This document shows, piece after piece, positions 17,982-64,000 of a stretch of DNA of 64,000 nucleotides (position 1 is its first letter; every line of letters starts with the position of its first letter). The stretch is from Eledone cirrhosa (taxonomy: Eukaryota), in the NCBI GenBank assembly GCA_964016885.1, contig OZ024743.1, positions 120,280,001-120,344,000 on the forward strand. Direction: 5' to 3'. Under the pieces are notes generated by a model. The model was not told where the DNA came from, made no database searches, and saw only the letters and a list, made by a program, of their open reading frames with translations. The position numbers were made by a program, and so were the translations under genes.

Positions 17982-19094
17982 CAAAATAATGTTGACCTGT
18001 TATCTGTGAAGAACTAGGGTTGACCTTTATATGAGATACATGAAAAAATCTGAATTTTTTAGCAAAAAATAGATGATTGACTTTTACATGCATATATATG
18101 GTATATATAGAAGGAAAGATTCTTGACTGGTTGCTTTAGACATCAGCATATTAAGTGATCTGAGACAAATACCAAAGGTGGAGAATGCACATACAAAAAT
18201 ATATATTAGCATACCATTAATCGTGTGTATCCAGTTTAGAAGAAGTACACTGTATCTCTGTGTGTCGTAAAAAGAGATTAAAAGGGTTAGTGTAAGGAAG
18301 GGCATCTGGATGTAAACATTGCCTCAAAATGTCCTGTCCAACTTACGTCCAAAAATGATGATGATGCCAACATGAAAATGACAAAGACCACATTATTTAA
18401 AGTTTATAGAGCCACTGCCAACAGGGGCTGCATCCTTATGTACATGTTATAACTTAAGGTTTCTAAAAGTTGCCCATCTTTCACATCCTTTCTTCCCATG
18501 TCAAATTGAGTCTTTGTGACCGTTTCTTATTTTAATATGTCGATGTTTCCATATTTCCCTGTTGTAGATTGTAATTGAGTGTATATGTCTTCTCTAGATT
18601 TTTTTCTCCTCTAACATTTATTGATTTGTTTTGTAACTAATAGTTATTATCTATAGTGTGTTTAAACAAAACACAATAACTGAATTGCTTCTCTGCCCTG
18701 GATGCTTTTTAAAGCATTTCTATCTCTCCTTAAACAATGACCTAGCTTGTACCAGTAAAATTTTGAAGTTAGATGTGATTATATAATACACCCTGTCAGG
18801 TGGAGTGCCAGTGCCATGATAAAACATACCTAGCATATGCTATGAAGTGATTGGTGTTAAGAAAGGCATTCCATTTAGCCTTAGAAACTATGTCAGAATG
18901 GAATGTATGAACAAGACACAGTCATCTGATATGTCTGACTTCAATCTGGATGTAAAACAGTGATGTTAGATGTGTAGTATAAAGTAGTAGCATACACTGT
19001 ATATTCAATGATGTAGATGTAGAACTGAAAGAGCAAGTTTATGCTCCTTGTATTGGGAAAGCTTACGGATAGTTTAATTATTTGTAACATTAAG

Positions 19095-21778
19095 GAACAG
19101 TAAGGAACAGTAAGGTGGAGGAGTCAATTAAGGCCAAAAAGCAGGCTTGGAAAGTATGGCGGGATGGGGGAAGTAGAGAAGACTATCAAGTGGCCAGGAG
19201 GGAAGCTAGGAGACAAGTGTACTTTGCAAGAAGGGAAGCAGAGGAAAGAAAGTTCAAGCATGTTCTACAACGTGAGGACCAAAAACGTGAGGTGTTCAGG
19301 ATTGCCAGGCAATGTGTCAAGGAAAACCGTGATATTGTCGGGGAGAAGTGTGTGCTTAATGATGATGGCATACTTGCCATCACCGACGCTGATAAGAAGG
19401 TAGCTTGGAAGTGTCACTACGAAAGGCTTCTAAATGAGGAGAACAAATGGGAGAAAGACAGTCTCCCCCAGATCGATCCAATAGAGGGACCAGCAGTGTT
19501 AGTTGAAGGTAGTATAATAAGTAAGGCAATCAAAGATATGAAGACGGGTAAGGCGGCTGGGCCTTCGGAAATAGTTGCTGAGATGCTGAAGGCATCTGGT
19601 TCGGTGGGACACACCATGGTCACCCGGATAGTTAACCAAGTCGTACAGAATGGGGTTGTTCCGAAGGAATGGCGTAGCAGCATCATCGTTAACTGCTATA
19701 AGGGAAAAGGAGATGCCCTAGATAGGAGTAACTATAGAGGCATTAAATTAATCGACCAGGTCATGAAGGTCACGGAAAAAGTAATAGCGCAACTAATCAG
19801 AGAGAGAATTGATCTAGATGAAATGCAGTTCGGGTTTGTGTCAGGCAAAAGTACCACAGACGCTCTTTTCATTGTACGACAACTACAGGAGAAGTACCTA
19901 GCTAAAAGTAAACCCCTATACTTAGCTTTCGTCGACTTGGAGAAAGCCTTCGACAGAGTCCCCCGTTCCATTATCTGGTGGTCTCTTAGAAAACTAGGTG
20001 TTGACGAATGGCTTGTGAGAGCTATACAAGCCATGTATAAAGAAACAGTCAGTAAGGTTAGAATTAACAACGAATATAGTGAAGAGTTTAGCGTAAAAGT
20101 TGGTGTCCATCAGGGCTCTGTTCTTAGCCCCCTACTATTTATTATTGCCCTTCAGGCTATAACAGAGGAGTTCAAGACCGGCTGCCCATGGGAACTCCTA
20201 TACGCAGATGATCTAACGCTCATAGCTGAATCAATGACCGAACTAGAGAAGAAATTCCAAACATGGAAGCACGGCCTAGAATCAAAAGGCCTTAAAATTA
20301 ACCTGGCTAAGACTAAAGTTCTAGTTTGTAGGAAAGAAAATAAGGCGGCGGTCCCATCTGGGAAATGGCCATGCTCAGTGTGCAGGAAAGGCGTAGGTAG
20401 AAACTCCATTTTATGTCCCAAATGCAAAGTATGGGTGCATAAAAGATGTAATGGGATCACAGGTAAGCTAACTAAGAACATAGATTTTACATGTGGCCGG
20501 TGCTCTGGTGCAATAAGTAGCAGCAAGTGCCCACAAAATACTAGCTCCTTCAACTGCGCAGAGGGTTCTATAGAAATAGTGGACAGCTTCCGTTATCTGG
20601 GTGACAAAATCAGCAGTGGGGGAGGGTGCTCTGAAAGTACAGTAGCTAGAGTCAGAACTGGATGGAAAAAGTTCAGAGAGCTTATACCACTATTAGCCGC
20701 TAGAGGGTTCTCCCTAAAAATGAAAGGCAGGTTATACGATGCCTGCATACGAACAGCAATGCTGCATGGCAGTGAGACCTGGGCATTGTGTGCAGAGGAT
20801 ATACGCAGACTAGAGAGGAACGAAGCTTGCATGCTCCGCTGGATGTGCAATAGTAATATATGTGAACGGCAAAGCATAAACGAACTAAGGAAAAAATTAG
20901 AAATAAGAGGGATCAGATGTTGTTTACTCGAGAGAAGGCTACGTTGGTACGGTCACGTGATGCGCATGAAAGACGACAGCTGTATAACAAAGTGCAGGGC
21001 AATAAAGATAGACGGTAGCCACGGAGTAGGCAGACCCAGAAAAACATGGGACGAGCTGATAAATTCCGACCTCACACGCTTACACCTCTCCAAGACAATG
21101 TCACTGGACCGAGACCTTTGGCGGTACTCAGTAATAGAGAAGACCCGCCTTACCTAAATACAAAGTAAAAACCTACTACAGTCAGTAGGCATCTCTATCA
21201 AAACACCCCCCCGTCCCACCACCTCCACCCCACCCACACCGCCCCTTTCAATGTAAAGTTATGTTGGTCCCACAACATCCAGGCCGAAACAAATGAGATC
21301 GTGTAGGTGTCACGACAAAAAACACACAGTCCACGCTGTAAATGTGGCTGTGTAGGCAACACGGTAAAAACCTCCCAGCCCCACACTGTAAATGTGGTTG
21401 GTGTTAGGAAGGGCATCCAGCTGTAGAAAACCCGCCAGACAGTCCACGCTGTAATGTGGCCGTGTAGGCAACACGGTAAATACCTCCCAGCCCCACACTG
21501 TAAATGTGGTTGGTGTTAGGAAGGGCATCCAGCTGTAGAACACCCGCCAGACAGTCCACGCTGTAATGTGGCCGTGTAGGCAACACGGTAAAAACCTCCC
21601 AGCCCCACACTGTAAATGTGGTTGGTGTTAGGAAGGGCATCCAACTGTAGAAAACTCGCCAGACAGTCCTATGCGAGCAAGACAACCACTCTTGCCTCAA
21701 GTGGGAAAACCCCCGTCCAAACCCATGCAAGCGTGGAACACGGACGCTAAACCTGATGATGATGATGATGATGATGAT
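19095..21778 (+). mobile_element. Young 5'-truncated RTE-clade LINE in TM2D2 intron 3
   Basis: Uninterrupted 680-codon frame with RT motifs (QFGF, FVDLEKAFD, QGSVLSPLLF, YADD) and the RTE C-terminus (RLRWYGHV, GRPRKTW). No endonuclease domain; (TGA)n tail. Confidence 0.95.
21328..21668 (+). repeat. Three tandem 112-113-bp units in the RTE 3' UTR
   Basis: AGTCC unit starts at 21328, 21441 and 21553, and the array closes at 21665. Confidence 0.9.
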
Positions 21779-28540: not shown

Positions 28541-29668
28541 TGTAGTGGGATCACAGGTAAACTGTCTAAGAACGTAGATTTTATATGAGGTCGATGCTCA
28601 GGTGCAATAAGTAGCAAGTGTCCACAGGATACTAGCTTCTTCTATTGCCCAGATGGTTCTATAGAACTAGTGGACACTTTCCGTTACCTGGGTGACAAAA
28701 TCAGTAGTGGTGGAGAGTGCTCTGAAAGTACAGTAGCCAGAGTCAGAACGGGATGGAAAAAGTTCAGAGAGCTTATACCGCTGTTGGCCACAAAAGGTTT
28801 CTCTCTAAAAATGAAAGGCAGATTATATGATACCTGTATACAAACAGCAATGCTACATGGCAGTAAGACATGGGCATTGCATGCAGAGGACCTGCGTAGA
28901 CTGGAAAGGAACAAAGCTTGCATGCTCCGCTGGATGTGTAATAGTAATATACGTGAACGGCAAAGCATAAATGAACTAAGTGAGAAATTAGGAATAAGAG
29001 GGATCAGTTGCTGTTTACTTGAGAGAAGACTACGTTGGTATGGTCACGTGATGCACATGAAAGATGACAGTTGTATAAAACAGTGCAAGGTGATCAAAAT
29101 TGATGGTAGTTACGGAGTAGGTAGACCCAGAAAAACTTGGGACGATTTGATAAATTCCGACCTTACACACTTACACCTCTCTAAGACAATGTCACTGGAC
29201 CGAGATCTTTGGCGCTACACAGTAATACAGAAGACCCGCCTTGCCTATGTACAAAGCGAAACCTACAGTCAGTAGGTATCTCTTAACCAAATATACACCC
29301 CAATCCACTACCCCTACCCTATCCTCCCACTCCCACTAACACCACCCTCTCTCTGTAAAGTTGGTACCACAACATCCAGTTCAAATAAATGAGATAGAAA
29401 TTGAGATCGTGTAGGTGACATGACAAAAAAAACACACAGTCTACGCTGTAATGTGGCCGTGTAGGTAACACGGTAAATAGTTCCCAGTTCCACACTGTAA
29501 ATGTGGTTGGTGTTAGGAAGGGCATCCAGCCGTAGAAAACCTGCCAGATAGTCCTATATGAGTGAGACACGGTCACCCGACCAACCTTGCCTCAAGTGGG
29601 ACAACTCCCATCTAACCCATGTTAGTGTGGAAGATAGACGTTAAATGAAGATGATGATAATGATGATA
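28541..29668 (+). mobile_element. 5'-truncated RTE LINE, same family as 19095-21778
   Basis: ORF 28670-29275 closely matches the C-terminus of the 680-aa ORF; single-unit 3' UTR; TGA tail. Confidence 0.95.
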
Positions 29669-38084: not shown

Positions 38085-39820
38085 ACCATTCATAAAAGGA
38101 TTTGTTGGTCAGATATATACGTGCTAATTTCATGGAACGTTAAACCCAGACGTTTTCCAGTTGAATTCAAATAAAGCCGTGTGAATATGCTCATATCATC
38201 GATGAAATAATGTAACAGATAGATCGATCAAAGAAAATAATATAATATAGACAGAGGTTTAGAAATAGACAGAAAAACAAAACAAAAAATAAACGTAGGT
38301 TTGCTATCTAGTTTTACGCGTGTCTATCGTAACTTAGAACATCGAGATGTTTATGGGCATCATAAAGAGACAGTGGAGACTTCTGTGTCCTTGGCCCTAG
38401 GTCCACCTCAGTACTCACCACCATCAACACAGAGTTGGTTACCCACAGGTGTGAGCCTTGCGAGCTGGAATGGCTCTTCCAGCGTGTCTTCATCACCATC
38501 CGCCGGAGAAATGCCTTCTTTATTCTGTCCGATGGGGCCGCGGCGTAGCAAGCGCATGGGTCCCCATTTGTTCATAATAGTGGGAGATGGGGAGAGCGAG
38601 AGAGACGAAGCAGAGTTTAGTTCCTTTGTGTTCGGATCTGGTGTATATTTGTAAGTTTCACTCACACTGAAGATTTGCACCATCTATAGGTTATAACAAA
38701 CAGATAGCCCGACCATAAAGAAGTAGGAAAGAGAGGTGTGGAAGAGAGGGATGTAATATAATACAGACTGCACGTTTTAGAATATACATATTTAATAAAT
38801 TAAAATATCTTATTTTGCTTCCAATTTTCGGAAAACCTTTTATTAGTTAGAACTGCACGTGGAAATATCGTGGACATTTCGGGGTTGTTTGCCAGTCAAC
38901 ACGCCCGTCTGGAAAGAAGAGGAAGATATATATATATATAAATAAAAAAAAGACTGAGAAAGACTTAATGTAAGACTAATAGAGAAATATTGAGTTAAAT
39001 TACAATTTCTCAATTTGCTTTTACTATTCGTAAAATGGATTTGCAGGTCCGATATGCGTGTAGCTCCCTCTTTCAACTTCAGACTTAGAAATGGTTGCCA
39101 ATTGCATTTATATATGTTTGTGTGAACACGTGCGTGAATCACAAGTGAGAAAGAGGCGGAGAAAAAAAAGCAAAAGGGATAATAAAACTGATAAATGGTT
39201 TAAATAGAAATATTACTAAATAAAATTAAAAATATTTAGCTTGCTGTACTATTCGTAGAAGGGTCTGTTGGTCAGCTATGCGCGTGGTAATCTCATGTAA
39301 CTTGGAAACTTTGATTTTCGCCAGTCGAATTTATATATGGCTGTGTGAACACGTCTGTATCTATGATGAGAAAGAAACAAGCAGACGGAGGGAAATGTGA
39401 ACTAAAAGAGAGATAGAGAGAAATAATACAATAACACAGATAGAGGGTTTGAAATAGAGATATATTAAATTAAATTAAAATTTGTTAACTTGCTTCTACA
39501 GTTCTTAAAACACTTTGTTGGCTGGTCAAATATGAACGTGCAAATATGAACTGCAGAGGTGCTTGCCACTCAAAATCATGTATGGTTGTCTGAACACACG
39601 ATTATTATTGATATGAAAGAGACAGACAGAGAGGAATGATAATGATGATGATGATGACAAAAGAGAAGAGAAAGAGGGAGAGAGAGAGAGATAATTTAAT
39701 AAAACCGATAGTGGCTTTAAAATAGAAACATTATTAAATTAAACTTTCGTAGCTTGCTTCTACCATTTCTAAAATGTGATGGGAAATATATGCGTGGTAA
39801 TACCATCCAACTTCAAATTC
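38085..39820. repeat. Degenerate tandem repeat of about 225-265-bp units
   Basis: Recurrent TTGCT..TAC.ATT, GTTGGTCAG.TATGCGTG, TGTGTGAACACG and ATAGAGGTTT.AAATAGA motifs at about 38085, 39015, 39240, 39490 and 39753. Confidence 0.6.
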
Positions 39821-41114: not shown

Positions 41115-42790
41115 GCGATAGTTATACAGGGATCAGCTGACTCTAAGTCATCTCTCAGGAAAAATCATTAGATTTAACATTGGGTAGTTTATAAGAAATT
41201 GTTGAGATTCTTCTTTTCTGTCATGTTTAGAAAATATATGTAGTTTAGAGAACAGTTGCAGCAAAACTAAACATCAACAGAGCACATATAATGCTCTCGA
41301 GATTTTCTATAGGTTACCAAGTATTAATGAACATACAACTTAAATTAACAATCTATAAAGACCCCGCTGATCCTGGTCAACAACAGTGTTCTCTGCTGAG
41401 ACTGATCTTTCTATCCTGCCTTCTCAATCAGATGACAATTAACTGAAACAAGAGATCAAATATTTCATATCAAGTTATAATGGCTTTGAAAACTGTATTT
41501 ATCCCGACTTATAGACACCAGGTCCGAACACGAAAGAACCAAACTCCCACTGTCACTGCCTCCGTCTCTCACACTCTCCCAATGTCTTACTATTGTGAGC
41601 AAATGGGAGCCCACGCGCTGACCGCCCCGCGGCTCCGGAGGACAGAATAGAGATAGCGTTTCCCCAGCGAATGGTGCGGTTGACGCGCTGAAAGAGCCAT
41701 TCAAGCTCGAGAGGCTCACACCTGTAAGTAGCCAACTCAGTACCAATGGTGGTGAGTAGGGAGGTGGTCCTAGGACACCAGAAGTCTCCACTGCCATGGG
41801 CTCGATCGCAAACCTGTCGGAGAGCGACCGATATTTGGAGAGTTTACCTTCTTCGGCTCAAAATGCTGCAGAGCCTGCGTTAGTTGCAATGGTTGAATGC
41901 TAAATATGAAGGATTGCGTGACTAAAATTATTTTACTACTATAAAAATTGGCTGATTTAGTCTCAAGAGCTTGAGATTTGTGCCAGAAGTTACAATCCTG
42001 ACACTGCCAGTTATATTTGTTTCTACTTTAGGCACAAGGCCAGCAATTACCCAGTTCATTACTGGTGCTTTATTTTATCGACCCCGTAAGGATCTACAAG
42101 TTATAACATTAACTAATAATGTTTCAACATACAGGAATCAAAGAGGTACTTTAAGCAGTATTGAAAAAAAAAAAAAGAAATAGAAATACCCTGAATCCAA
42201 GATATAGTAAGAGGCTGGATTGTGGACAGAATATTCAGTTAATGTAATGACTACTGAAAAAGTATTAGTTTTTGGCAATGATTTCTAAAATATAAGAACG
42301 CATTAGAGCAATGTAGATTGATGGCAAGATATGAAACACTAGCACCGAGAATGATGAAAAGAATATCGTTCTCCTAAAACTTTTCTACACAAGCTTATCA
42401 TAACTTTTTCAAATTGGTGCTGCTCAATTATTTGGGTGTACAGTATATGATGTCTGGTCAACAATAATTATGACATGAGGTTTTTGTTCTTCCAGGTTAG
42501 GAGGAAATCCACATTAAAAGAAAATATTTATGAACTATGAACAAATCAAAGTTGGCGCGGGGAAAAATAATAGCTGATTAAATCCATTAAATTACTGATA
42601 ATTATGTTATTAATCTCATAAGAATGAAAGATAATTGTTGACCTTGACAGGATTTGCAAACAAACTAAAATACATTGATTTGACATTCTATTGTTTCAAC
42701 ATACACAAGCAGTGTAAAATATGTCATACGTTTAAAACTTGAAATCGCTTTAGTTATATAGGGAATCATTGTTCATAGTATACATATAAT

Positions 42791-43319
42791 ACTAGCCGAA
42801 TTACCCGCGCCTTGCTGCGTTTCACACATTTTTTTTTTTTTTGTAAGAAAATGATGATTAATTTTAAATCAGTGATATAATTTATGGAGAAAAACTCTGC
42901 ATTTCAATATTACTCAATGTAAAATGTAATGCATGGAAAATTGGAAAACATTTTTTGTAATATATCAAATCAAAATTACATTATTAAATCTTATTCTTAT
43001 TTTGTTTCTTGTAAATAATTTTTTTCAAAATATCAATTCCAAACTTTTGTGAATAGGCATCATATCTTGTCATTAACGTAAGGTTTAAATTTCATATAAA
43101 TCGAAAGGGAAAAAATGTTCAGCGGGGGTTTGTGCCCTCCGGAAAACCCTTTGATTAACATGAAATATACTTATCCAAGTACCCTGAGCAATGAAGTTTC
43201 AGAATATATATGGTTATGGGGGTCTATCTCCAAAACCATAGGAGGAGTTCGTGAACAAAAAAAAACAAAAACAAAAAAAACAAAAACAGAGAGGAACTAC
43301 AACTTTATATATATAGATT
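42791..43319 (+). mobile_element. Non-autonomous Helentron/HINE (Lep1-like) element
   Basis: ACTAGCCGAATTACCCGCGCCTTGCTGCG at one end; GGAGGAGTTCGTGAACA...AACTTTATATATATAGATT at the other. Confidence 0.7.
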
Positions 43320-43382: not shown

Positions 43383-43625
43383 AAGACACGTGGCCTAGTG
43401 GGAGAGGTGTTGGATTTACGATCGTAATGTTGTGGGTTCGATTCCTGGGCTGGGTTGCGTGTTGTGTTCTTGAGCAAAACACTTCATTTCACGTTGCTCC
43501 AGTATTCACAGCTGAAAATGTGTACCAGCAATAGCTGGGGATTTAACCCAGTCGCTTCACGCCACGAAACCGGGATAAACACAGGCTCAACGCGCTGCTT
43601 GCAACGCACGAGGGGATGCATGCAA
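43383..43625 (+). mobile_element. tRNA-derived CORE-like SINE related to 36012
   Basis: TGGCCTAGTGG / GGTTCGATTCC boxes and TTGAGCAAAACACTT...CAGCTGAAAATG; followed by short TACATCTGGTGG repeats to about 43765. Confidence 0.75.
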
Positions 43626-44707
43626 TACTCTCTTCTACATCTGGTGGTACCATGTCTTACATCTCGTGATACTATGTTCTACATCTGGTGGCATTCATTG
43701 TTTTACATCTGGTGGCATTCATTGTTTTTACCTCTGCTGGCGTTCACTCTTCTACATCTGGTCGTATTTTCAGTTTTATACATTCTGATAATCAGTGTTC
43801 TTAGTTTATATCTGTTAAAATACAATGTAATTTGAGATTTTGAATTGTGACCATACTTCAATAGCCTGACTTTTATATCTGTAGGAATTTACATTATGTT
43901 GTTGATATATAAGCTAACTAGTCAACTGTTGTATCATTGGATATCAGATTTAGGAAATAACTGAGAAGGGTATGTACTTTGTTTATACTTATCAAATAAC
44001 AATCAATAAGAACACTCCGTCTCTTGACTAAATTTATCTTAAACAAAATTCATGGATTAAACGTATATTTTCCTCGTAACAAGACTTCTTATCTGTTAGT
44101 TATCTACTGTCTCTTTTGTTTATCATATCTCCACTGATTTTAAGATACACCACTATTTTATGTCTCTATTCTGCCAATGGAAGTTCAGTTTTTGTTTTAC
44201 TTGTAACATTTATGGCTGATTTTTCTTGTCTTCTTTCTCAGCTTGTTTTCACTTTTTTTTTAATGTAAAACACAAACCTTTTCATCCCGTTTGATAATTA
44301 AAGCTGACGTCTGCAACATCATTGTAATTTAAGTCCTCTGGTGTTGTACTGTGTGTGCGTTTTCTTTCCTTTCTTGTGTTTTAAATTGCGTTGCCGCTTT
44401 CTTGAGTCTAAAAAAAAAAAAAGTAACAAGAAATCAAACGGACAGAATTTTCGTTGCAACCTTATATTTGGTATTTAAATAATTGAACAGAAAGTAAAAA
44501 AGTCAAAGCTTTCAGCAAAGACATTTGAGTTTAATTCTTCGTGTAAAAAATGCAAGTGTCTTTTGTGGTTATGAAAATGGAAAAAGAAGGGAAAGCAACT
44601 TTGGTGCTAACATGTCGAAGCATGAATTCCAAGTTATGTTGAGTATGTGAGTGATTTGACTGTTAAATAAAGTGCCAGAAGATAATATCGAACTGTGGAC
44701 TGTTAAA

Positions 44708-44899
44708 TAATTGTTTCTACTTTTGGCACAAGGCCAACAATTACCCAGTACATTACTGGTACTTTATTTTATCGACCCCGTAAGGATGAAAGGCAAAGTT
44801 AACCTCGGCGGGATTTGAACTCAGATCATAAAGGGACGTAACTCTATGCTTCAAAGCATGGTGTCCGACTCTCTACCGATACTGCCAATCCACCGCCCT
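44708..44899 (-). mobile_element. Full-length tRNA-derived SINE with 13-bp TSD
   Basis: ACTGTTAAATAAT at 44699-44711 and 44900-44912. Confidence 0.95.
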
Positions 44900-44999
44900 A
44901 CTGTTAAATAATCGTGTACGAAAATATTCATGAGTGGCCTTAGAAGAAATTTATTTTCCATCTCCTTGTTTTAGTTTTAACTTTGATGGCATTTCTCTC

Positions 45000-45847
45000 C
45001 AGTCATGCATTGATATCGTGTTGATATTTCCCTTGCTTGGTGTATCTGGGTCAAATTTAATCTGTTGACTGCTGCGTATATTTTACACAGCTGCAGTTGC
45101 TGTACCGAGTATTTTCTTTTCCAGTAAAATGACCATTTTGATTGACAAACGTCACATCAATAAACTAGTAACCCCGTCTAGCTTTGAAGTTAATGAACTT
45201 TTGGAAAAGAGTTTAAACATGTTAGGACGAGTTATCTCGTCTACGGCACTGAAGAGGTTAAAGTCTTTTAGAATTTCTTTTGAGCATGCGTATGAGTATG
45301 AGTATTGCGACAGAATTATTTGACTAGTCTGCGTAGGTTGTATCATTCTGAATCCTCCATTTGGTATGTGAGATAGTCCGAGAAGATTACCTACCATACT
45401 CTAATATCATTTCCGGTGTCTTTGTATATCTCAAAGTACGGCATTAGGTATGGTATGAACACTTCATTGTTGTTCTTAGTCGTCTATGATGTCAATTTCG
45501 AATCTCATCTCTTTTACTCTGTATGCTGTAGCGGTTTGTAATGTGTATTCCCATTATAAACCGTCTCACTCATGAAGTAAGTCAGTGTGTAGCAATATAC
45601 TCTTGTGAATTACATGTACTGTATAAAATACATCTGTGCCTTTAATATGGTCTGTGCCAAGAAATAGAAAGGGCACAACATTCATAACAGCACTGTTCAT
45701 GTTGTTCGATCTAACGAGGTTTCTGAATGTACAATTGAAAGTGTAAGTCCTGTTGGTCTGGTCAGGGATGTCCCCACCAATTTGGATGCCTTGTCCTCTG
45801 TTACATCCCCTCTGGTCCGTTAGTCCTGTCGCCTTGTCCGAAGCCAT
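45000..45847 (-). pseudogene. Candidate endogenous parvovirus/densovirus capsid (VP) gene remnant
   Basis: Frameshifted blocks in parvoviral VP order: Gly-rich MASDKATG..GQGIQIGGDIP, RTYTFNCTFR, VYCYTLTYFMSETVYN, ATAYRVKEMRFEI, VFIPYLMPYFEIYKDTG. The lower boundary is approximate. Confidence 0.55.
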
Positions 45848-45985
45848 TGTTTTATGAATAGTATGTCTGTTAGCAACAGAATTAATTATCACTGGTTGTT
45901 GTAATACATTTTAAAAATTATGTATGTATGTATGTATGTATGTATGTATGTATGTATGTATGTATGTATGTATGTATGTATGTAT

Positions 45986-46185
45986 GTGTCAGGTCACCAG
46001 TTGGTGCTACTGGTAACATGTATTCCAGTACAACCCGTCCCATGGTCGGGTCGTTGGCGACTAAACTGGCAACCCTACCAAGGTTTCTTGGTGAGGAGGG
46101 TGACTTTGAACATCCTGCAGGACTAAAAACAAAGCCTGTCAAAGGGCAAAGGAGCTCATAAGGTCAATGGCCATCCAAAATCACC
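45986..46185 (-). repeat. Unclassified ~200-bp interspersed repeat next to (CATA)n, probably a retroelement 3' UTR
   Basis: Paralogues at about 46653-46850 and, inverted, 63805-63923; shared GCTACTGGTAACATGTA.CCAGTACAAC. Confidence 0.7.
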
Positions 46186-46429
46186 GGGAGAGATGACCCC
46201 CTTAGCCTTTGTCAAGGCAGAATTCTAGGAGAAGGAAAACTCTGATATAACACCTGCAACTCTGATGGTATCCAATGATGTTGACTTGTTCTTCTTTTTG
46301 GTAAATATCATCTTGGTTAAGAGAGTGGGACTGGCTTTGTGCAGTGCCTTTGCTGACTATAAAAGCTTCACGGCACAGGCATTGCTTTATATCTGGAGAT
46401 CTCTCTGCACTTGTCATCACAGGGTACAA

Positions 46430-46652
46430 TGGGCCCAGCACTATGTGTCAGTAATTGTCACAAGTGTAGTGTTTGTACCAGAGTTTTCAAGTCGCTGGCT
46501 GGACTAAAAAGTCACACTCGTTCAGCGTATCGATAGGGGTTCTCCTACATGGATATAAAGTAGTGGCCGTACTCGAAAACGAGTTGGCAGCCACCATGTA
46601 TGTATGTATGTATGTATGTATGTATGTATGTATGTATGTATGTATGTATGTA
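46430..46652 (+). mobile_element. 3' end of a BovB-like RTE with C2H2-like finger and (ATGT)n tail
   Basis: CSVCTRVFKSLAGLKSHTRS* matches the end of ORF 62895-63362; terminal GGCC.TAC.CGA.AACGA...GGCAGCCA.C-(ATGT)n as at 63749-63798. Confidence 0.75.
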
Positions 46653-46964
46653 TGGTAGTGTCAGGTGACTTCTGAGTGCTACTGGTAACATGTATCCCAG
46701 TACAACCTGTCACATGGTTGGGCCGCCGGCGACTAAGCTGGCTACCCCACCAAGCTTGCTTGATAAGGAGTGTGACTGGACACTCTGCAGGATGAAAAAC
46801 AAGACCTGACAAAGGGCGGAAAAACTCACTAGAGTCAACGGCCATCCAACAATGTGTATATGTATATACTGTGTGGGTGTATAAATGTATATATGTGGGT
46901 ATATGTGGAATTGGTTGCATGTAAGTGTGTATTTTTATTTACTTATTTTATTATTATTATTATT

Positions 46965-49978: not shown

Positions 49979-51218
49979 CCTTGAATCTCAGTCATTGATG
50001 TTGGTTAACTGGAAAGTCCGTTGGATTGAATATCAAGCCACTACCTGCAGCCTCAGATATTCAGGACGTATCGGAGGGTTCTTGCCGTTCCAAGCAAGCA
50101 TGCCTTTTGAAGCGTTCCAAAAAGCGTGAAGGGGCCGATTTTCTTTAACCATCCCTGGAAACCTTTGGAGATAGTCCCCAGTGCGCCTATGACAATCGGG
50201 ATCACTTTGACTTCATGGCAGTTCCAAATCCTTTTCACCTCCCACTTTAGGTCCTGGTATCGGTTAATTTTCTCCCTCTCCTTCTCTTGCACTCTCGTGT
50301 CGAACGGGCAGGCCACATCCACAATCAGGCACGATCTTTTTTCTTTGTCCACAACCACCAGGTCAGGTCTATTGTGTTCCAGTTTTTTGTCCGTCTGTAT
50401 CCTAAAATCCCACAACACCTTCACCTGACTGTTCTCCATCACCGCCTCTGGCCTATGCTCATACCATTTCTCAGAATGTGGTAGATTGTTTACTTTGCAC
50501 AGGTGCCAGTGGATCACCCTGCCCATCACATCGTGTCTCCAGCCCTTATAGTGGGTCTGGGCTAGGTGTTTACACTCGGACACAATGTGAGCCACAGTCT
50601 CCTCTCTCTCTCCACAGATCCTGCACAGTGGGCTAGCCTCCTCCTTGTAGATATGGTGCTTCAACCACTTCGTTTTGAGGGCCTGCTCCTGCGCAGCCAT
50701 TAGCATTCCTTCTGTAGCCTTTTTGAGGTCTCCTCTTCTCAACCAGTTCCATGTCTGTGGATCTCTAAATTCAGTTTTCTCAAAGAAGGTACTATGAAGG
50801 GATTTTCCCTTAAGGCTGCTCTTCCTCCTTGATGTTATTTCCTCCTTGGGTATCCCCTGGCCTACTGTCCCCTCCTTCAGTACAGCTCTGAGCATTGGCT
50901 CCTTACTATAGGTCACGTATTTGTATAGGTTGTTTTTCTCCATCTGAACACAGTCCTCTATGCTGATAAGACCTCTTCCACCCTCAGATCTCCTTAGGTA
51001 GAGTCTATCGACATCACTCCTCTTGTGGAACATGTTGTAGATAGTCAATAGCTTCCTAGTCTTCCTATCCATTTCTTTTTGTTCAGCAACATTCCATCTC
51101 AGAATTCCCGCACTGTACCTAATAATAGACACAGCTCGGGAATTTACTGCGCTTATGGCATTTCTGCTGTTCAGATGTGACTTCAATACGCTCCTTACTC
51201 TCCGAATGTATTCAGTTC

Positions 51219-51220
<2 letters not shown>
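49979..51220 (-). mobile_element. R4/Dong-like family A, 1.24-kb 5'-truncated copy
   Basis: ORF 50053-51186 differs from the matching part of 56389-57927 at one visible residue (GIPK versus GISK). CRIC..H...C, RHD, PDLVV..DVACP motifs; TTA repeats on both sides. Confidence 0.95.
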
Positions 51221-51254
<34 letters not shown>

Positions 51255-54200
51255 GGCGACCTACGTAGTAAATCGTATCATCGTGAGCTCCGCAAAGGTT
51301 TGTTATTTTCAGTTGTTTAATATTGCCATTCATGGAAAATTTTTATTGTTAACATTGATTTCTGAAAAGGACACTCAAAAATATTGGGGCCTTGAGCCCC
51401 AAATTTAAACTTTTTATAATTATCAAACAAAACTTTTTCTTTAAAAAATAATGGATGACTCAGATTCACTCCTTCCTCACAATCCAACACCTCACACCGA
51501 CACCACAATTGTAAATATTGCTACGTTTGCCAACACTGGAATTGTAAGCAGTAGCAATATTTTAAATTTGTCTCAGGCAGACGTTCATTTCCCGCCATTA
51601 CCAATGACTGCAGGTGTTAAAGCCGCCACCACCACCACCAGCACCGCGACATCCCCCCCCCCCCCCCACCACCACCACAACGACAACAGAAACAAAAGAA
51701 AAAAATAAATTAACTCATGATATCGAAATGAATTCAACCAAAATGAACTCTTCCACACCGAACACCACTGACGCCACCACCACCACAACTGAAACTAAAA
51801 TTAACAATAGCAAAAATAACGATAATATCAACAGCAACAATGAAATTAAGAAAACTACCCTGAGTTTTGCTAGAGTAGCAAAAACGTGCGAAGCGATCCA
51901 GGTAACTCAGGAAGAATTAGACGAAGCCAAAGGAATAGTAAAGAAAGATGGGTACAGGGTCAGCCTCACTCCCCACCCATTTGGTACATGTGTGGGCAAA
52001 AAAAACCCCACATCAGACGTAGGCAGAAGTATGGAACCGTGGATGTGTTCTTTGAAACACCAGAGGAGGCCAGAGAACACTCCATGGCCCCATTAAGAAG
52101 TGACGACTTCACACTCGTCCCAAGCTATTGTGGCCAGAGACTCGTGAAGATCAAGGTGACCCACGTTCCACCGGCCATCGAAATTCCCTGGCTAATGGCT
52201 GCCGTCCTCGCCGGCATCGAGGCCAACACCAAAATAATAGAAATAGCAAAAGAAAAGCAGGAGAACTGGTCCGGATCTGGGTTGGAGCTCCTGATCCAAG
52301 CGGACGATAAAAGCATTGAGGAGATCCCAGAGGTAATAGACCTCACTGATGGCAGCCACCTCACCGTAATCGTCGGGGGCAGAAGACCTAGGTGTGTCGT
52401 TTGTGGTGAAGGAACCCACCTAAGGGCTTTCTACCCTCAGGCTAAAAGGTTGAGGCCACCTCTCTTACCCACCCCAGTGACTCAACCATCAACACCACTA
52501 GCAGCAGAAATAGCAGCAACAACTGTAGCAGCAACAACAGAAGCAACTGTAACAGCAACAACCCCACCAACAGTAGCAAAACCAACACCACCACCACACA
52601 ACGCCCCAGAACTAGCACCAGCGCCTACACCATCCACCACGCCACAACCAAAACCAACGCCTGTGGAGGATTTTACACTCCCCGGCTTATCGCAACTGGA
52701 GACAGATTGTGACGACGAGGAGTGGGAAACGGTATCAGGAAAAAAGAAAAAAAAAAAGAAACCAAAAAAAGAAAAAAAATCTCTTCCTTCCCCCTCAAAA
52801 AACAAAATACAGAGGGAAACAAATAAATTATCGAACAAGAAAGTTAAGACAGATATGCCACCATCCACACCAGCATCATCAACCCCATCACCACAAACAT
52901 CAACACCATCACCATCATTAACCCCAACACCACCATCACCAACACCACAAAAGTCACCAAAAAGCGTAACAGAAACAAACCCACAACAAACGCAAACAAA
53001 ACAAAACAACCAAAACGATACACACTACACAGCATTAAATTTGAACAACAAGCAATTATTGCACTACATGCAACACAACACCAGCATCACAGAAAAAGAC
53101 TACATAACAACCCCAAAGTTCACACCACCTCCACACATACAAATCACTCGCATCACACAGAAAACGTACACGACACTAAAACAAAAATTCCCCAAAGATA
53201 TCGGAGACTTCCGACAAACACTCTCCAGGAGGAATTATAAGGACATCCTTCCGGAGGAGGCCACAAGCAGTGAAAAGGATGGACAAACCATCCTTCCTCT
53301 ACGAGAAGTAAGGTAAGTGGTTTTTCCCATCTTTTCCACTCCATTTCAACATGACCTCACTCAGAATAGGCAGCATAAATGCGCGTGGTTGGGGTCGCCA
53401 TGGAAGCAGGGCCACCTGCTCAACGACCACAGGTCACTAAACATAGATGTAGTGGCCATCAGCGAAACCAGAATCTCCGAAGCACGGGCCTTCTCACCGA
53501 TCTTCGGCGGCTACGATGTGTACGCATCTCCCAGCCGTCCGGGATCGGGTGGGGTGGGGGTGGGGTGGGGGTGGGGGTGGAGGGGGGAGGGGGGAGGAAT
53601 TGCTGTGCTTTTTCGGAGAGGTTTGGATTTCGCCATACGGGCCATCTTCCTGGACCCAGAAGGTAAGTTGGTGGTGCTAGACGTGACCAGCGGAGACGGG
53701 CAAGCTATCAGGCTAGTGGCCGTCTATGCCCCGACAGGAGCAGGGCGGCCTGATTTCTTCCGGCGTCTGGAGACCTTTCTTGGAACGTCCCGCTCTTTAG
53801 TGTTAGTGGGCGACTGGAACGGGATCTTAGATGCACGCTGGGACTGTGTGGGATTAGCGGATAGGGGAGGAGGGTGCAAGAGCCTCACCAACCTGCTCAG
53901 GCGTTTTGAACTGTCTGACAGGTACCGATTGGATTTCCCGAATGTGCCAATGTGGACTCGGACAAATCGCATAGGGTCATCCAGATCATATCTAGATAGA
54001 GTATTTTGTAGAGAAATAGATAGGTCTAGGATAGGCTGTCCACAATTCAAGATAGTCAGCTACACGGACCAATAGAGCAGAGGGAGAATTAGTTAGAAAA
54101 TTAGACGAGGCGCTTAGCAAAGGCATCGCGACCGACGTACTTGCGGCGAAATTGGCCCTTGACCAATTCTTCAATGCAAAGCACGAAGGCTGCGTTGTCA

Positions 54201-56030
54201 GAGCTAGGGTGCGTGCTCTCAGACACGAGGGAACGAAAGCCGTTCAATAGGCCCGAGTGGCGGAGGCGCGTCGTGGAAACAAAGCCACGATCCGGTCTTT
54301 GGTTGACCACGACGGGCGCATGCTACTCGATCCCGGGCAAATGTGTGAAGCTTTTCAGCGACACTTCCCTCAGTTGTTCGGGGGCAGCGGCGGGCTGGAT
54401 CGTGGGATGGACTTTAGTGTCTACCTCGACGGACTGCCCCGGCTCTTGGCCACTTGGCCAAACACATCAAGGTGATCGGCACTACACTAAGAGAATACGA
54501 AGCGGTGACAGGAGCAATGATCAGCCAGGAAAAGTCAGTGGGCCTGCAGCTCGGCACCTGGAGAGGCAGGTCCATGCCGTCCAACAGCGTCGTCGGGCGC
54601 TGGACGGAGGGACCAGTTAAATTGCTCGAGGTCTGGTTCGGTCCGCATCTCCAGACGGACAAAAACTGGGACGAGGTGACGAGCCGGGTGGCTTCTCTCA
54701 CCCAGAAATGGGCTGAGAGGAAGCTATCCCTGAAAGGTCGAGCGGAGGTGGCTAATGCGTATATCGCGTCCGTCATCTACTACCGCCTGACCATCGTACC
54801 TTGTCCTAAGCCCCGCCTGACTGCGCGGGAGCGTTTGCTCTTTCGCTTTTTGTGGAAGGGACGCGCTCCGATGGTCAGGCGGTCCATCTGCTGTCAACAC
54901 CCGCTACGTGGAGGGCTGGGAATGCCGTGGCTGATGATGCGCAGACACGCGCTCAGGCTACGACATCTCCACCTCTTCCTCGACGGCGATCAGGTGTGGT
55001 CTCCGTTTGCTAGACGCGTCTTTCCCCAGCTCATCTCCTCGACGGAGCTGCAGTCCTGGGTCAAGCGAAGACCGAGAGAGAGCGCTTGGAGACTGGAATG
55101 TCTTCAGGCGCTCACAGCCCTCGACCAATCGGGCAATGTGATCGGTGGAAACTCCACCTTGGCGTTCTAAAGAGGATTAGTGGAGGGGAAGAGCGACGAC
55201 ATACTTGGGAAAACTCTAGGCGTCGACGAAAATCAATTAGCTAATCTCTTCGGAAGAACTTTCGGGCTGGGGCCTATGGACAACTTCCAGAAATCCCTGA
55301 CCTGGAAGTGCTACCGAGGAGCTTTGCCAGTTCGGGATAAACTATACAGGCATGGAGGTGCCGTCTGCCGGGCATGTCCGAGATGCGCGCAGGGCGACGA
55401 AACCGTCCTGCACGCACTCGTCCAGTGTCCGAGCATTGCTGACTTGAGGGTTTATGTCGAACACCTGCTGTCGCGTGTAGGACGGATCCAGCTATCAGCT
55501 GAGTCCATCGTGAGGATTGCCCCGCCCTCTTCCTTTAGCCGGGAAGGGCAGGCAGTTTTTATCTGTCTGGTGGCCATGGCGAAAGAGATAGTATGGTGGA
55601 CACGTTTGAAAGGGCTGAAGACGAGCACTTACCTCTTCGGTGATGCCCTGATTAACTTTTTCAAATTTCATTTAAAAAGGAAAATCAGGGTAGAAAGGGA
55701 AGTGCTCTCTTCCCAGCATTTTGTTGAAAGATGGGTGAGAGAGGCAAGAATAGCCCGAGTGAATGGGCCTACTCTGAGTATGTGTCTGTAAATTAAAAGT
55801 GGAACACTGGGAGAGGGCACTTGCCCTGGTGGTCAGGGTCACTGTGGCTTTTTAATGGGGATGTCCCTCGGAAGTCTCCCCCCTATTGGGGAATTTTTTC
55901 ATTGTTCTATTATTACATCCTCTGTTTCTTGTTTTTTACACGCAGAAATGCCCATTTGTACCGTCCTGTATTGTCCTGTACTGTCCTTAATGTCTACTTT
56001 ATGTAAACCCTTGTGGTTAATAAAGAAATC
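51255..56030 (+). mobile_element. Tx1/L1-clade LINE with both ends retained but the RT core deleted
   Basis: Frameshifted ORF1 (51451-53316; T/P-rich, degenerate CxxC...H knuckle). ORF2 starts at about 53351 with an APE endonuclease (GSINARG, SETR, VYAP, GDWN, YLDR, YTD). C-terminus has GGLGMP and CPRC..ETVLHALVQC, ending at 55791. No YADD. Confidence 0.9.
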
Positions 56031-56314: not shown

Positions 56315-59300
56315 CCTTGAATCTCAGTCATTGATGTTGGTTAACTGGAAAGTCCGTTGGATTGAATATCAAGCCACTACCTGCAGCTTCAGATATTCAG
56401 GACGTATCGGAGGGTTCTTGCCGTTCCAAGCAAGCATGCCTTTTGAAGCGTTCCAAAAAGCGTGAAGGGGCCGATTTTCTTTAACCATCCCTGGAAACCT
56501 TTGGAGATAGTCCCCAGTGCGCCTATGACAATCGGGATCACTTTGACTTCATGGCAGTTCCAAATCCTTTTCACCTCCCACTTTAGGTCCTGGTATCGGT
56601 TAATTTTCTCCCTCTCCTTCTCTTGCACTCTCGTGTCGAACGGGCAGGCCACATCCACAATCAGGCACGATCTTTTTTCTTTGTCCACAACCACCAGGTC
56701 AGGTCTATTGTGTTCCAGTTTTTTGTCCGTCTGTATCCTAAAATCCCACAGCACCTTCACCTGACTGTTCTCCATCACCGCCTCTGGCCTATGCTCATAC
56801 CATTTCTCAGAATGTGGTAGATTGTTTACTTTGCACAGGTGCCAGTGGATCACCCTGCCCATCACATCGTGTCTCCAGCCCTTATAGTGGGTCTGGGCTA
56901 GGTGTTTACACTCGGACACAATGTGAGCCACAGTCTCCTCTCTCTCTCCACAGATCCTGCACAGTGGGCTAGCCTCCTCCTTGTAGATATGGTGCTTCAA
57001 CCACTTCGTTTTGAGGGCCTGCTCCTGCGCAGCCATTAGCATTCCTTCTGTAGCCTTTTTGAGGTCTCCTCTTCTCAACCAGTTCCATGTCTGTGGATCT
57101 CTAAATTCAGTTTTCTCAAAGAAGGTACTATGAAGGGATTTTCCCTTAAGGCTGCTCTTCCTCCTTGATGTTATTTCCTCCTTGGATATCCCCTGGCCTA
57201 CTGTCCCCTCCTTCAGTACAGCTCTGAGCATTGGCTCCTTACTATAGGTCACGTATTTGTATAGGTTGTTTTTCTCCATCTGAACACAGTCCTCTATGCT
57301 GATAAGACCCCTTCCACCCTCAGATCTCCTTAGGTAGAGTCTATCGACATCACTCCTCTTGTGGAACATGTTGTAGATAGTCAATAGCTTCCTAGTCTTC
57401 CTATCCATTTCTTTTTGTTCAGCAACATTCCATCTCAGAATTCCCGCACTGTACCTAATAATAGACACAGCTCGGGAATTTACTGCGCTTATGGCATTTC
57501 TGCTGTTCAGATGTGACTTCAATACGCTCCTTACTCTCCGAATGTATTCAGTTCTTAACAATTCCTTCATTTTTTTGTTCTTTATGCCATCAGCCTCCAG
57601 AACGCCCAAATACTTGTATCCTTCCTCAGAGTCAATATCCTTTATCATCTCACCTGTTGGTATCTGGATCCCGTTACTTCTGCTCAACCTACCCCTCCTC
57701 ATCACAATGACTCCACATTTACCAATACCAAACTGCATACATATATCACTGCTGAAAATACGGACAGTGTCAACAAGCACATCCAACTCCTTCTCACTTT
57801 TCCCGAAGAGCTTAAGATCGTCCATGAAGAGGAGGTGATTGATGGTAAGCTCTCCCCTTCCCAACTTGTATCCTGCTCTCACTTTTCGCAGCATAATGGT
57901 CAAGGGCATCAGGGCAAGGACAAACAACAGAGGGGACAGGCTATCTCCCTGGAAGATACCTCTCTTTTGATCTTCACGCTTCCCAAGGATACTCCAGTTG
58001 ATGTCAACTCTGTCTCCCAGGACCCCATACTCCTGCCCAGCAACTGTCTGATGTTATCTGCCACCCTGAAGATCTCCAGGCTTTTGGTGATCCAGGAATG
58101 AGGCACCATGTCAAATGCCTTTCTGTAGTCTATCCATCCCATGGCAAGATCAGTGTGTCTCCTCCTGCAATTCCCCATTACCATCTTATCAATAAGCAAC
58201 TGGTCCTTTGTACCACGTGACTTCTTTCGGCATCCTTTCTGTTCGTCCGGCAACAAGTTGTTTGTGTGGAGGTGATGGTAGATTTCCTCAGACACAATGC
58301 TCGTCAACAGTTTCCACATTACGGGCAGACATGTGATAGGTCTATAGTTGGTAACATCATTACCCTTGATTCGGTCTTTCATTATCAGAACTGTGGTACC
58401 TTTTGTCAACCACTCTGGCACCTCACCCGACACCAAGCAGTCATTGAACATGGCCGTCAGCTTCGGGTGGAGGGATGTTAAATGTTTAATCCAATACCCC
58501 TGCACACCATCTGGGCCTGGTGATTTCCAGTTGGTTAGTTTTTTGGCTTGCCCCTTAAGAGTTTCAACTGTGATACTCAAATCAGTCTGTTGTTGTGCCT
58601 GCTCACCGATCTCCCTCTGTACTGTCTCAATCCACCCTGCCTGGGCATTGTGTCTAACATCCTGCTCCCATATTCCTCTCCAGAATGTTTTAGCTTGTTC
58701 CGCCCCAGGGATCAAGTCGTTGCCTCTTTCTTTCCCCTCAAGCTGTCCAAACAGCATCTTCTGGTTGTTGTCGAACATGCGGTTCTGTTTATACTGACTG
58801 ACTCTGTTCTCGTATCGCCTGATTTTGGCACTCTTTGCTACAATGCGTTGCTTCAATTCCTCTATGATAATATTTAGCTTTTTACTCCTAGTTTTGTATT
58901 TTATTTCCAGTCTATTTTTAGTGCCTATGTTTTTTAGTGTCCCATTCAGTAGTGACTCAAGCTTTCCTATGTCATTTCTCATTTCCCCGATTTGCCCACT
59001 CAGTCACTTCTTCCACCACGGCTCTGCTCTTTCTTGTCTGTTGTTTCCTCTCGCTTTTATACCAAGTAGTTTCCTCACCGTATTTGCTGTTGCTTTGAGG
59101 ATATTGTTGCACTGGTGAAGACTCCTCGCCTCAAGGTATGGGATGACTTTGTTTACCTTAGCTGTTGTTTCTTTTAACTTTTTCCTGTCTACAAATCTTA
59201 GGTTCATAGGTCTCCCACTATCATTGTTCAACTCATCTACCACTAAATTTAGGATGTCAACCGAATCTTGTCCTAGCCCGTCAGCATTCATCTCCTCAGT

Positions 59301-61185
59301 GGCCGTATCTCTGTTCCAGGTATTATTTATCTCAGTATTCAGATCATTGTCTGCTTCGGGTGGTTCCTCCGTTCTCAGGACCTCCTCACCTTCATTTCCC
59401 GCCGGCTCGCTTGTCTGGCATACTACACCCGCCATCTCCAAGCCATTCTCTCTGCTCAGTTCCTCCAGTTCCAGCTCGCTTATCCACCCATTAGTTCTTA
59501 TTACCCGAGCCTGACCGGCCAATTTTTGTTCATCTAATTTAAATAAACCAATCTCGTTCCAGATGTTATGCATCCGTCTCCTGTAGCCCCTCTCCTTGGG
59601 GTTACTTTTCAGGTAGCATTGCATAACAGTTCTATTCAATTCTTTCGTCCAGTTGGTTCTGGCCCCTTTCCTTCTTCTTCTTCCTCCAACATCAGCAGTA
59701 TTTGGTTGACAGTCAGGTTCCTGCTGCTGAGCCAGGGGGCACCTGTTGGGTGAGAGTCTGTCACATGACGTTCTAGTCTCCATTTCACCGTTATTCGAAC
59801 TGTTTATGTTCGATATTTAAACACTCTTATCGAGGATTGGCGAATGTATGTTTACATAGCCATCTGTGGATCCGCCATCCCACTTGGCCCTTGTGTGGCA
59901 TTATCACCACGCTGTATACGGACACACATAAAAAAACAAACACACGGGCAGAAAGGGCCCCAAAAATGAATAAGCATAAGTTTCATTGTAATGTAGTATT
60001 CGAATGTCTGACTTAGTTTTTGTTTTTTAAGTTTTACTTTTTCCCCCCTCTTCTTCTCTGTCCGTCCGCCTGCTTCTCTCTTCATTCTTATTTTCTTTAC
60101 GTTTTTGGGGTTTCTTTTTTTGTTTTTGTTTTTCTCTGTTTGTTTTTCTCGTTTTTTGCTGTTGTTGCTGTGCTGCTGTGGTTTTGTTGTTTGTTTTTTC
60201 TTTTTTCTTTTGAGTCTATCTATATATTTTGATGCCTTCCTCTTTGTTAGTAGTAGGAATTCTATAATGTGGAAGTGGCAGCCAGCAGAGACTGGCGGCG
60301 TTGGCGATACTGAGACAGTGGTGGTGGTGATGTCGATACCGAGGCAGTGGTGGCGGTGATGCGACCGTATTACTGTAGTGATGGTGCTGTAGCGGTGGCA
60401 GCAGCAGTGAAGGAGTCAAGGGGTGGTGGCGGCGGTGATGGGATAGTGGTGGTAATGATGGCCGCAGTGAGCGGTGGCGGTGAAGGTGAAAATGCTGTTG
60501 TGTTTAGTGTACACAGATGATGGGGTGGGTGGTGTATCTAGTTTCTGGTGTTGGTGAGTTTAGCTGTCCTATATAGTGTAGCCAGAGGAGAGGAGGGGGG
60601 GGGGTTCTTCTTCTTCCATTTATAGCCATTTTATTTTTTTTTTTTTTTGGATATACAGTGTACAATACAAAGTTGAATATTTGAATATTTGAGCCGTATT
60701 ACTGTAGTGATGGTGCTGTAGCGGTGGCAGCAGCAGTGAAGGAGTCAAGGGGTGGTGGCGGCGGCGATGGGATAGTGGTGGTAATGATGGCCGTAGTGAG
60801 CGGTGGCGGTGAAGGTGAAAATGCTGTTGTGTTTAGTGTACACAGATGATGGGGTGGGTGGTGTATCTAGTTTCTGGTGTTGGTGAGTTTAGCTGTCCTA
60901 TATAGTGTAGCCAGAGGAGAGGAGGGGGGGGGGGGGGGTTCTTCTTCTTCCATTTATAGCCATTTTTTTTTTTGGATATACAGTGTACAATACAAAGTTG
61001 AATATTTGAATATTTGAGTCTTATACCAATATATTTTGGGTCCGAATTTTTTTGGGCTCAAGCCGGGTGCTTTACGTAGCATTTGTACTAAGAGTTGTTA
61101 TTTCACAAATGATTTAAATATGTTAAAAATTCAAAACTTACGGGAGCGATTTCATGACCTCCGTCACCTCGTGCGTCTTCTTCCC
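56315..61185 (-). mobile_element. Apparently full-length R4/Dong-like RLE retrotransposon, family A
   Basis: ORFs 59004-59783, 57909-58982 and 56389-57927 join into one ~1130-aa protein (R4-type N-terminal WT..N..YRRRM..EQKLA.Q motif, RT with FMDD, CCHC, PD-D RLE). It is broken by one in-frame TGA and one 2-bp slip; (TTA)n on both sides. Confidence 0.95.
60365..61018. repeat. Tandem duplication of about 327 bp in the R4 5' region
   Basis: Units 60365-60693 and 60694-61018 are near-identical apart from homopolymer lengths. Confidence 0.95.
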
Positions 61186-61359: not shown

Positions 61360-63798
<2,439 letters not shown>

Positions 63799-64000
63799 TT
63801 TTTTATTTCACAGGATGTCCAAAATCACCCTCCTCAACAACCAAGCTTGGTGGGGTTGCCGGTTTAGTCGCTGACAATCCGACCATGCACATGTTGTACT
63901 GGGTTACATGTTACCAGTAGTGCGTAAATTCAATGACTATCCCCCAAACTTTTTTTTTTGTGGACCGAGAGACCCCTAGTCTTCATTAAGACATCTCTCT

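Follow-up and report, generated by a model that had tools for sequence, protein, structure and literature searches.

The capsid gene remnant and its surroundings

The window, that is, the whole 64,000-nt stretch of Eledone cirrhosa DNA analysed here, consists of AT-rich eukaryotic DNA with LINE remnants (RVT_1, zf-RVT, endonuclease), SINE copies and microsatellites, and its minus strand carries, from 45883 to 44291, a decayed parvoviral capsid (VP) gene. The counterpart of this piece is formed by residues 101-452 of P0004, an intact protein of 608 aa, which is the best phmmer match of the frame that begins with the ATG, read with stops as X (E 7.8e-14), and to which the piece is 37.3% identical over 316 columns. 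The features of the locus are the following.

44291..45883, minus strand: decayed parvoviral VP gene fragment (phmmer, tblastn, profile alignment)
45845..45847, minus strand: ATG, predicted start of VP2 (the major capsid protein), 3' of the PLA2 region (profile alignment)
45748-45722, minus strand: TYTFNCTFR, in the frame of the ATG at 45847
45600-45553, minus strand: VYCYTLTYFMSETVYN (VYCY motif), in a second frame
45526-45494, minus strand: AYRVKEMRFEI, in the ATG frame
45441-45412, minus strand: PYFEIYKDTG, in the second frame
45394..45553, minus strand: best-conserved core with the AYRV and PYFE motifs (segments of 42.9 and 49.2 bits)
near 45623, 45553, 45483, 45391, 44958 and 44371, minus strand: frameshifts of the VP piece (profile alignment)
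45623-45555, minus strand: two in-frame stops of the VP piece (profile alignment)
45057..45261, no strand assigned: insertion 1, 197 nt long, bounded by TTAA on each side, its terminal inverted repeats imperfect (9/14; TTAA-pair test)
44699..44912, minus strand: insertion 2, a host SINE at 44712-44899 whose 13-bp target-site duplication is perfect (copies at 44699-44711 and 44900-44912; repeat comparison)
44403..44583, no strand assigned: insertion 3, AT-rich, of about 181 nt (profile alignment)
45919..46654, plus strand: internally deleted LINE-derived element (45988-46595) flanked by (TATG)n at 45919-45986 and 46599-46654 (window self-comparison)

A profile built from 40 relatives, with the window excluded, was aligned to the raw DNA with frameshifts and long insertions allowed; it scored 235.9 bits in ten collinear segments that cover about 350 codons, and pieces recovered by tblastn support the capsid piece as well. 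The null for this score, obtained from 60 dinucleotide shuffles, had a mean of 24.0 bits (SD 3.5, maximum 33.4), while the same profile gave at most 33.8 bits among 40 tile/strand scores elsewhere in the window, 26.9 bits on the reversed sequence and 21.7 bits on the opposite strand. This alignment, together with the homology to intact relatives, upholds the sequence-only reading in its central proposal of a fossil ssDNA-virus VP gene in a mollusc-like host. The reading frame is broken by six frameshifts and two in-frame stops and is interrupted by three long insertions; because of these eight breaks and three insertions, the element cannot encode a capsid protein.

Searched as single frames, the window matched Pfam in 0 of 4 cases, returned only unrelated weak rows among PDB sequences, yielded 0 of 291 candidates in a word-index protein search and found no match by tblastn in phage genomes, a set of blanks that would suit a fortuitous likeness, a gene of the host or of a transposon, or contamination of the assembly. 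Such an origin was nevertheless ruled out by the phmmer match, the alignment score, its nulls and the fold of the relative, and its probability is negligible: 236 bits stand against nulls of no more than 34, the ten segments are collinear, a SINE with a target-site duplication sits within the capsid sequence, and a host or transposon protein that matches better, which would have spoken against the sequence-only reading, was sought with phmmer among 1.84 billion proteins, where none was found.

The four capsid motifs of the sequence-only reading were all located on the minus strand, in the order given and in two frames, as were the ATG in its ACAATGG context at 45847 and the Gly-rich stretch. 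As a capsid signal, TYTF, AYRV and PYFE hold, falling in order at profile positions 148, 222 and 255, whereas VYCY is probably out of frame, since its site scores 1.0 bit in the frame noted earlier and 7.6 bits, a modest margin, in the third frame, which is in register with the relatives. The region proposed for the element was real, but its end at 45000 fell about 700 nt short of 44291, to which the homology can be followed across the SINE. The ATG at 45845-45847 aligns with a Met at or beside its column in 12 of the 12 relatives inspected and, judged from parvoviral gene layout, is likely the VP2 start; homology begins about 12 codons upstream of it. The core at 45394-45553 has 12/23 and 14/29 identities to P0004, shows a weak in-register match to a dependoparvovirus VP1 and coincides with long strands predicted in the relative's model, which we take to be jelly-roll strands D and E.

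Outside this piece, the PLA2 part (profile positions 1-100) reaches at best 17.9 bits across the window, at a site not near the VP piece. For the C-terminal part (453-608), a 38-bit path to 40822 was rejected as resting on His/Thr low complexity; the path without low complexity scores 24.3 bits against 200 shuffles with a mean of 20.6, an SD of 3.0 and a maximum of 32.3. A weak candidate for the capsid C-terminus at 42766-42668 is not significant and serves as a lead only. Just upstream of it, at 42795-42830 on the minus strand, lies a hairpin with CTAGT, presumably resembling a Helitron 3' end, and at 43625-43783 a tandem array of 22-25-nt units directly follows a weak capsid-like segment (43801-43763). 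NS1/Rep is not visible, as the sequence-only reading had also remarked: in 36-52 kb, 0 of the 128 open stretches of at least 48 aa match an NS1 family, a screen that a decayed NS1 could escape, and the two Walker-A-like strings of the window are neither near the VP piece nor convincing. NS1, like the PLA2 part and the last quarter of the capsid, may never have been inserted, may have been deleted, or may have decayed past detection.

The LINE-derived element at 45919-46654 lies on the strand opposite the capsid gene and is a neighbour, no part of the viral piece. The 5' part of 45988-46595 corresponds to 61513-61669, a stretch that immediately precedes a LINE ORF, and its C2H2 zinc finger (46363-46533) shares 57% identity with the C-terminus of the LINE at 62811-63362; over 45988-46850, the element (5' part plus zinc-finger end) is followed by a second 5' piece, with related sequence at 61513-61669 and 63811-63920. 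Elsewhere in the window, 19094-21157 (plus strand) holds an open 687-aa LINE frame with reverse transcriptase and PHD finger, of which a decayed second copy lies at 28589-29275. Near-identical LINE 3' ends at 50053-51219 and 56389-59816 (minus strand) flank a Tx1/L1-like element at 51874-55791 (plus strand) that has ORF1, endonuclease and zf-RVT, the reverse-transcriptase core seemingly missing near 54100-54400. Two related, GC-richer repeat fragments without a Pfam match lie in opposite orientation at 38241-38654 (plus strand) and 41465-41857 (minus strand).

Insertions inside the viral gene

The profile alignment independently places insertions of 183 nt at the site of insertion 1 and of 198 nt at the SINE site (44699-44912). 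Insertion 1 is possibly a miniature transposon, which we presume to be of a piggyBac-like family; pairs of TTAA with at least 9/14 inverted repeats number 10 of 429 in the window, and with three pairs tested at the insertion itself this is a weak signal. The SINE of insertion 2, presumably resembling octopus SINEs, has six further near-full-length copies in the window at 86-92% identity, and three head-to-tail copies of the same 180-nt SINE occupy 419-964. For insertion 3, neither a target-site duplication nor a terminal repeat was seen, nor another copy in the window, and its interpretation as an intron (T-run, AG end) was dropped, the relatives being uninterrupted there.

The VP piece is endogenous, because its coding sequence is interrupted by a SINE of the host, flanked by a 13-bp target-site duplication; with the SINE and its duplication inside the gene, the viral DNA must have been in the chromosome before the SINE arrived. 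Joining to the host and later alteration are both seen, in the SINE with its duplication, the frameshifts, the stops and the host repeats on both sides.

Relatives, fold and affiliation of the capsid

The phmmer search of 1.84 billion proteins gave seven hits at E<=1e-3, six of them from one family; the other, P0005, is a HYR-repeat protein whose E of 1.8e-11 accumulated over 9 repeats; this hit was spurious and was removed before the alignments. Searches with P0004 and then with a profile recovered 10 and then 53 relatives, namely 48 Logan proteins, three ENA proteins and two cephalopod genome proteins. P0004 lies on a 4,470-nt contig and carries an N-terminal parvoviral PLA2 (PF08398, E 3.1e-7). 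All five full-length relatives, of 606-621 aa, have PF08398 above the cut-off, as does the Octopus vulgaris relative, and the PLA2 motifs are present in most (GPG loop in 10/10, HD pair in 9/10); four of the full-length relatives are on contigs of 3.8-4.5 kb, a size that fits a linear parvoviral ssDNA genome of 4-6 kb.

Only two of the 53 relatives are named, Octopus vulgaris CAI9735766.1 (P0070), from a host sequence of 84 Mb, and Acanthosepion pharaonis CAE1320483.1 (P0032), on a 1.4-Mb contig; both belong to the same VP family as the window element and are annotated merely as hypothetical. The octopus protein keeps an open 268-aa frame with the PLA2 and the N-half and, over 146 columns, shows 36.3% identity to the window, a value not above that for other relatives; with this open frame and an identity of only 36.3%, the two are, by sequence comparison, probably separate insertions. 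CAI9735766.1 would be a young insertion or a co-opted gene. In this protein, the column of the catalytic His holds a Leu. In the cuttlefish protein, scattered pieces of a capsid of this family have been strung together into a patchy gene model, which is probably a viral fossil annotated in error; it was excluded from profiles and tree. FastTree, run on 29 rows (the window and 28 of the 40 aligned relatives, the other 12 having fewer than 80 residues in the core), groups the window with the O. vulgaris protein and two other fragments at a support of 0.97, in a tree that is unrooted, has no outgroup and places the window on a long branch. Together with the two named cephalopod relatives, this grouping points to a cephalopod, likely an octopus, as host. 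P0008, P0029, P0056 and P0058 represent clusters, each of 9-25 capsid fragments that are near-identical and truncated in the same way, which are likely further fixed insertions sampled from many individuals.

The window's own letters have no Pfam or PDB-sequence hit, so that the evidence on fold and PLA2 comes from the relatives. P0004 alone found nothing among PDB sequences, and the capsid Pfam families, including PF16530 (IHHNV) and VP1_2, gave no hit for window or relatives; the family profile matched a dependoparvovirus VP1 through the PLA2 (E 1.6e-4). A first AlphaFold2 model, of full-length P0004 with 16 sequences, was too poor (pLDDT 39.4); Foldseek found nothing for it at E<=1e-3 (best 5e-3), the rows listed all being parvoviral capsids. 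A second model, of residues 142-548 with 58 sequences, reached a pLDDT of 59.5. Compared with 48,161 PDB chains, it had parvoviral capsids in all of its top 20 rows (Z 9.4-15.9), with the next row at 6.7. Human parvovirus 4 (8ep9) led at Z 15.9 (rmsd 4.9, 242 aligned residues), ahead of bovine parvovirus 1 (4qc8; 15.1), B19 (1s58; 14.5), dependoparvoviruses (14.5), pipefish chapparvovirus (13.8), BmDNV (12.9) and IHHNV (12.8); ambidensovirus capsids reached only 9.4-9.7, which makes the densovirus affiliation suggested earlier no better a fit than IHHNV. Parvovirinae fill 11 of the 12 top rows, with a lead of just 2-3 Z, in a Parvovirinae-rich library and for a model with a pLDDT of 59.5. BFVD gave 93 matches at E<=1e-3 (best 2.5e-13), with capsids of unclassified Parvoviridae, 11-15% identical, at the top. 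In the ESM Atlas, the top cluster for P0004 scored 0.95, with 25% Denso_VP4 and 14% VP1_2 members, while the O. vulgaris fragment was unspecific, RNA-virus clusters (0.93) leading parvoviral ones (0.87-0.88). A parvoviral jelly-roll with large loops is accordingly predicted from the model of P0004 and may be carried to the window by homology. Frameshift-aware comparison and structure prediction, two of the checks that had been proposed for the locus, both point to parvoviruses, the former through capsid relatives and the latter through the fold of P0004.

The sequence-only reading had placed the element near IHHNV and the hamaparvoviruses, and its kinship claim finds no support: descent from an IHHNV-like virus of Penstyl- or hama-type, without PLA2, is very improbable. 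The IHHNV (Penaeus stylirostris densovirus) capsid 3n7x shares the parvoviral jelly roll with the family, superposing on the relative's model over 208 residues at an rmsd of 4.0, a score of 0.93 goes to an Atlas cluster in which 15% of the members are IHHNV_capsid, and a PLA2 is not seen in the window itself. Against this, neither window nor relatives have a detectable sequence similarity to IHHNV, by Pfam (where no other capsid family was hit either) or PDB; the solved IHHNV chain has 299 residues, whereas five of five full-length relatives are of about 610 aa and carry PLA2; and 13 other parvoviral capsids outrank IHHNV by fold, placing it 14th. The lack of PLA2 that sets apart the VPs of IHHNV-like viruses (Penbrevirinae) and Hamavirinae is not found in this family, as judged from the relatives, the window being without that region. 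The IHHNV capsid is described without a PLA2 in one report (PMC11357303), and IHHNV-EVEs, which in crustaceans are endogenised in an aquatic invertebrate as here, were not found in the molluscs screened in another (PMC12287923). The resemblance of the motifs to IHHNV most likely reflects jelly-roll strands common to parvoviruses.

The family is parvoviral, has no close named relative and leans, without proof, to Parvovirinae. It has in common with Parvovirinae capsids the best fold matches, the N-terminal PLA2 and a Gly-rich stretch before the first strand; it differs in its 10-16% identity, its lack of a VP1_2 Pfam hit, a whole VP1 of about 610 aa and a likely invertebrate host. The PLA2 of the relatives is not diagnostic, being common to Parvovirinae (most genera) and Densovirinae; according to PMC13426907, an N-terminal PLA2 is confined to these two subfamilies, and subfamily assignment rests on NS1 (HUH nuclease and SF3 helicase).

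Origin and significance of the fossil

Taking the explanation as a whole, it is highly probable that the window element is a true endogenous fossil of a parvoviral capsid gene, that it is not IHHNV-like and that it stems from a PLA2-bearing lineage that is unclassified and linked to cephalopods; its parvoviral identity alone is held with greater confidence still. A virus of that lineage would have replicated in host nuclei, those of germ cells included, and a fragment of its DNA would have been joined by host repair into a germ-line break of a cephalopod ancestor. Since parvoviruses replicate in the nucleus (PMC11357303), joining of viral DNA by host repair is the simplest route, and we slightly favour a DNA-level, non-homologous integration. 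After entry, the capsid piece would have decayed into a dead element that probably makes no protein and evolves neutrally.

That a LINE reverse transcriptase instead made a genomic copy of a capsid mRNA of the same parvoviral origin is unlikely, but it would account for the presence of the capsid only, NS1 not being found, and for a homology start near the predicted VP2 start, compatible with a 5'-truncated cDNA, in a window full of LINE remnants. The (TATG)n tracts on which the sequence-only reading had based the idea of LINE capture bound a separate, plus-strand LINE-derived element on both sides. No poly(A) or polyadenylation signal was found: on the coding strand, AATAAA is missing from 44300-42500, where the only A-runs are one of 9 nt (44261) and one of 14 nt (42842). 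No target-site duplication was seen around the viral piece when its 5' flank was compared with upstream DNA. These missing marks have limited weight, as the copy is old, age erases them and its 3' end is undefined. That the host has retained the element as a piRNA source, a non-coding template for antiviral defence, is still less probable; it lies among transposon remnants, as do EVEs of shrimp piRNA clusters (PMC12287923), yet the closest relatives known, at about 36% protein identity, are too divergent from it to be targeted through RNA guides, and its decay looks neutral.

The kind of element is already known, in that endogenous parvoviral elements are common and parvovirus-like pieces from cephalopods were reported in 2016. 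Francois et al. (PMC5013282) described NS pieces from Octopus bimaculoides (one of them genomic), Sepia officinalis and Euprymna scolopes, those of the latter two with turkey parvovirus as best hit, and an O. vulgaris VP transcript (TSA JR446908) with AAV as best hit; the mollusc sequences branched outside all known genera, and contamination was not excluded by the authors. Those sequences were short, mostly NS and mostly transcripts, whereas the present one is a VP fossil of about 350 codons with proven integration and with intact full-length relatives. No prior report of the element or its capsid family was found in a literature search by title and abstract start that covered few subscription journals.

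It is likely that an unnamed parvovirus lineage infects cephalopods, with traces also in octopus and cuttlefish genomes. More tentatively, and with the balance somewhat against it, this may be an undescribed, still circulating lineage of genus level, with a PLA2-bearing capsid nearest to vertebrate Parvovirinae, of which the window would hold a germ-line fossil. If so, the recurrence of such insertions in octopus and cuttlefish would prove that a Parvovirinae-like lineage has an invertebrate host and would give datable calibration points for it; should the NS1 of the lineage group with Parvovirinae, the lineage would be a dated exception to the split between vertebrate and invertebrate subfamilies. 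A fossil interrupted by a SINE cannot stem from food or from laboratory contamination, a possibility that had stayed open in 2016. What is new is a firm host link for an unnamed family of capsids of about 610 aa, otherwise represented just by sequencing contigs without labels and by two cephalopod gene models with mistaken annotation, and the finding flags an unrecognised virus group that is likely relevant to octopus and cuttlefish husbandry.
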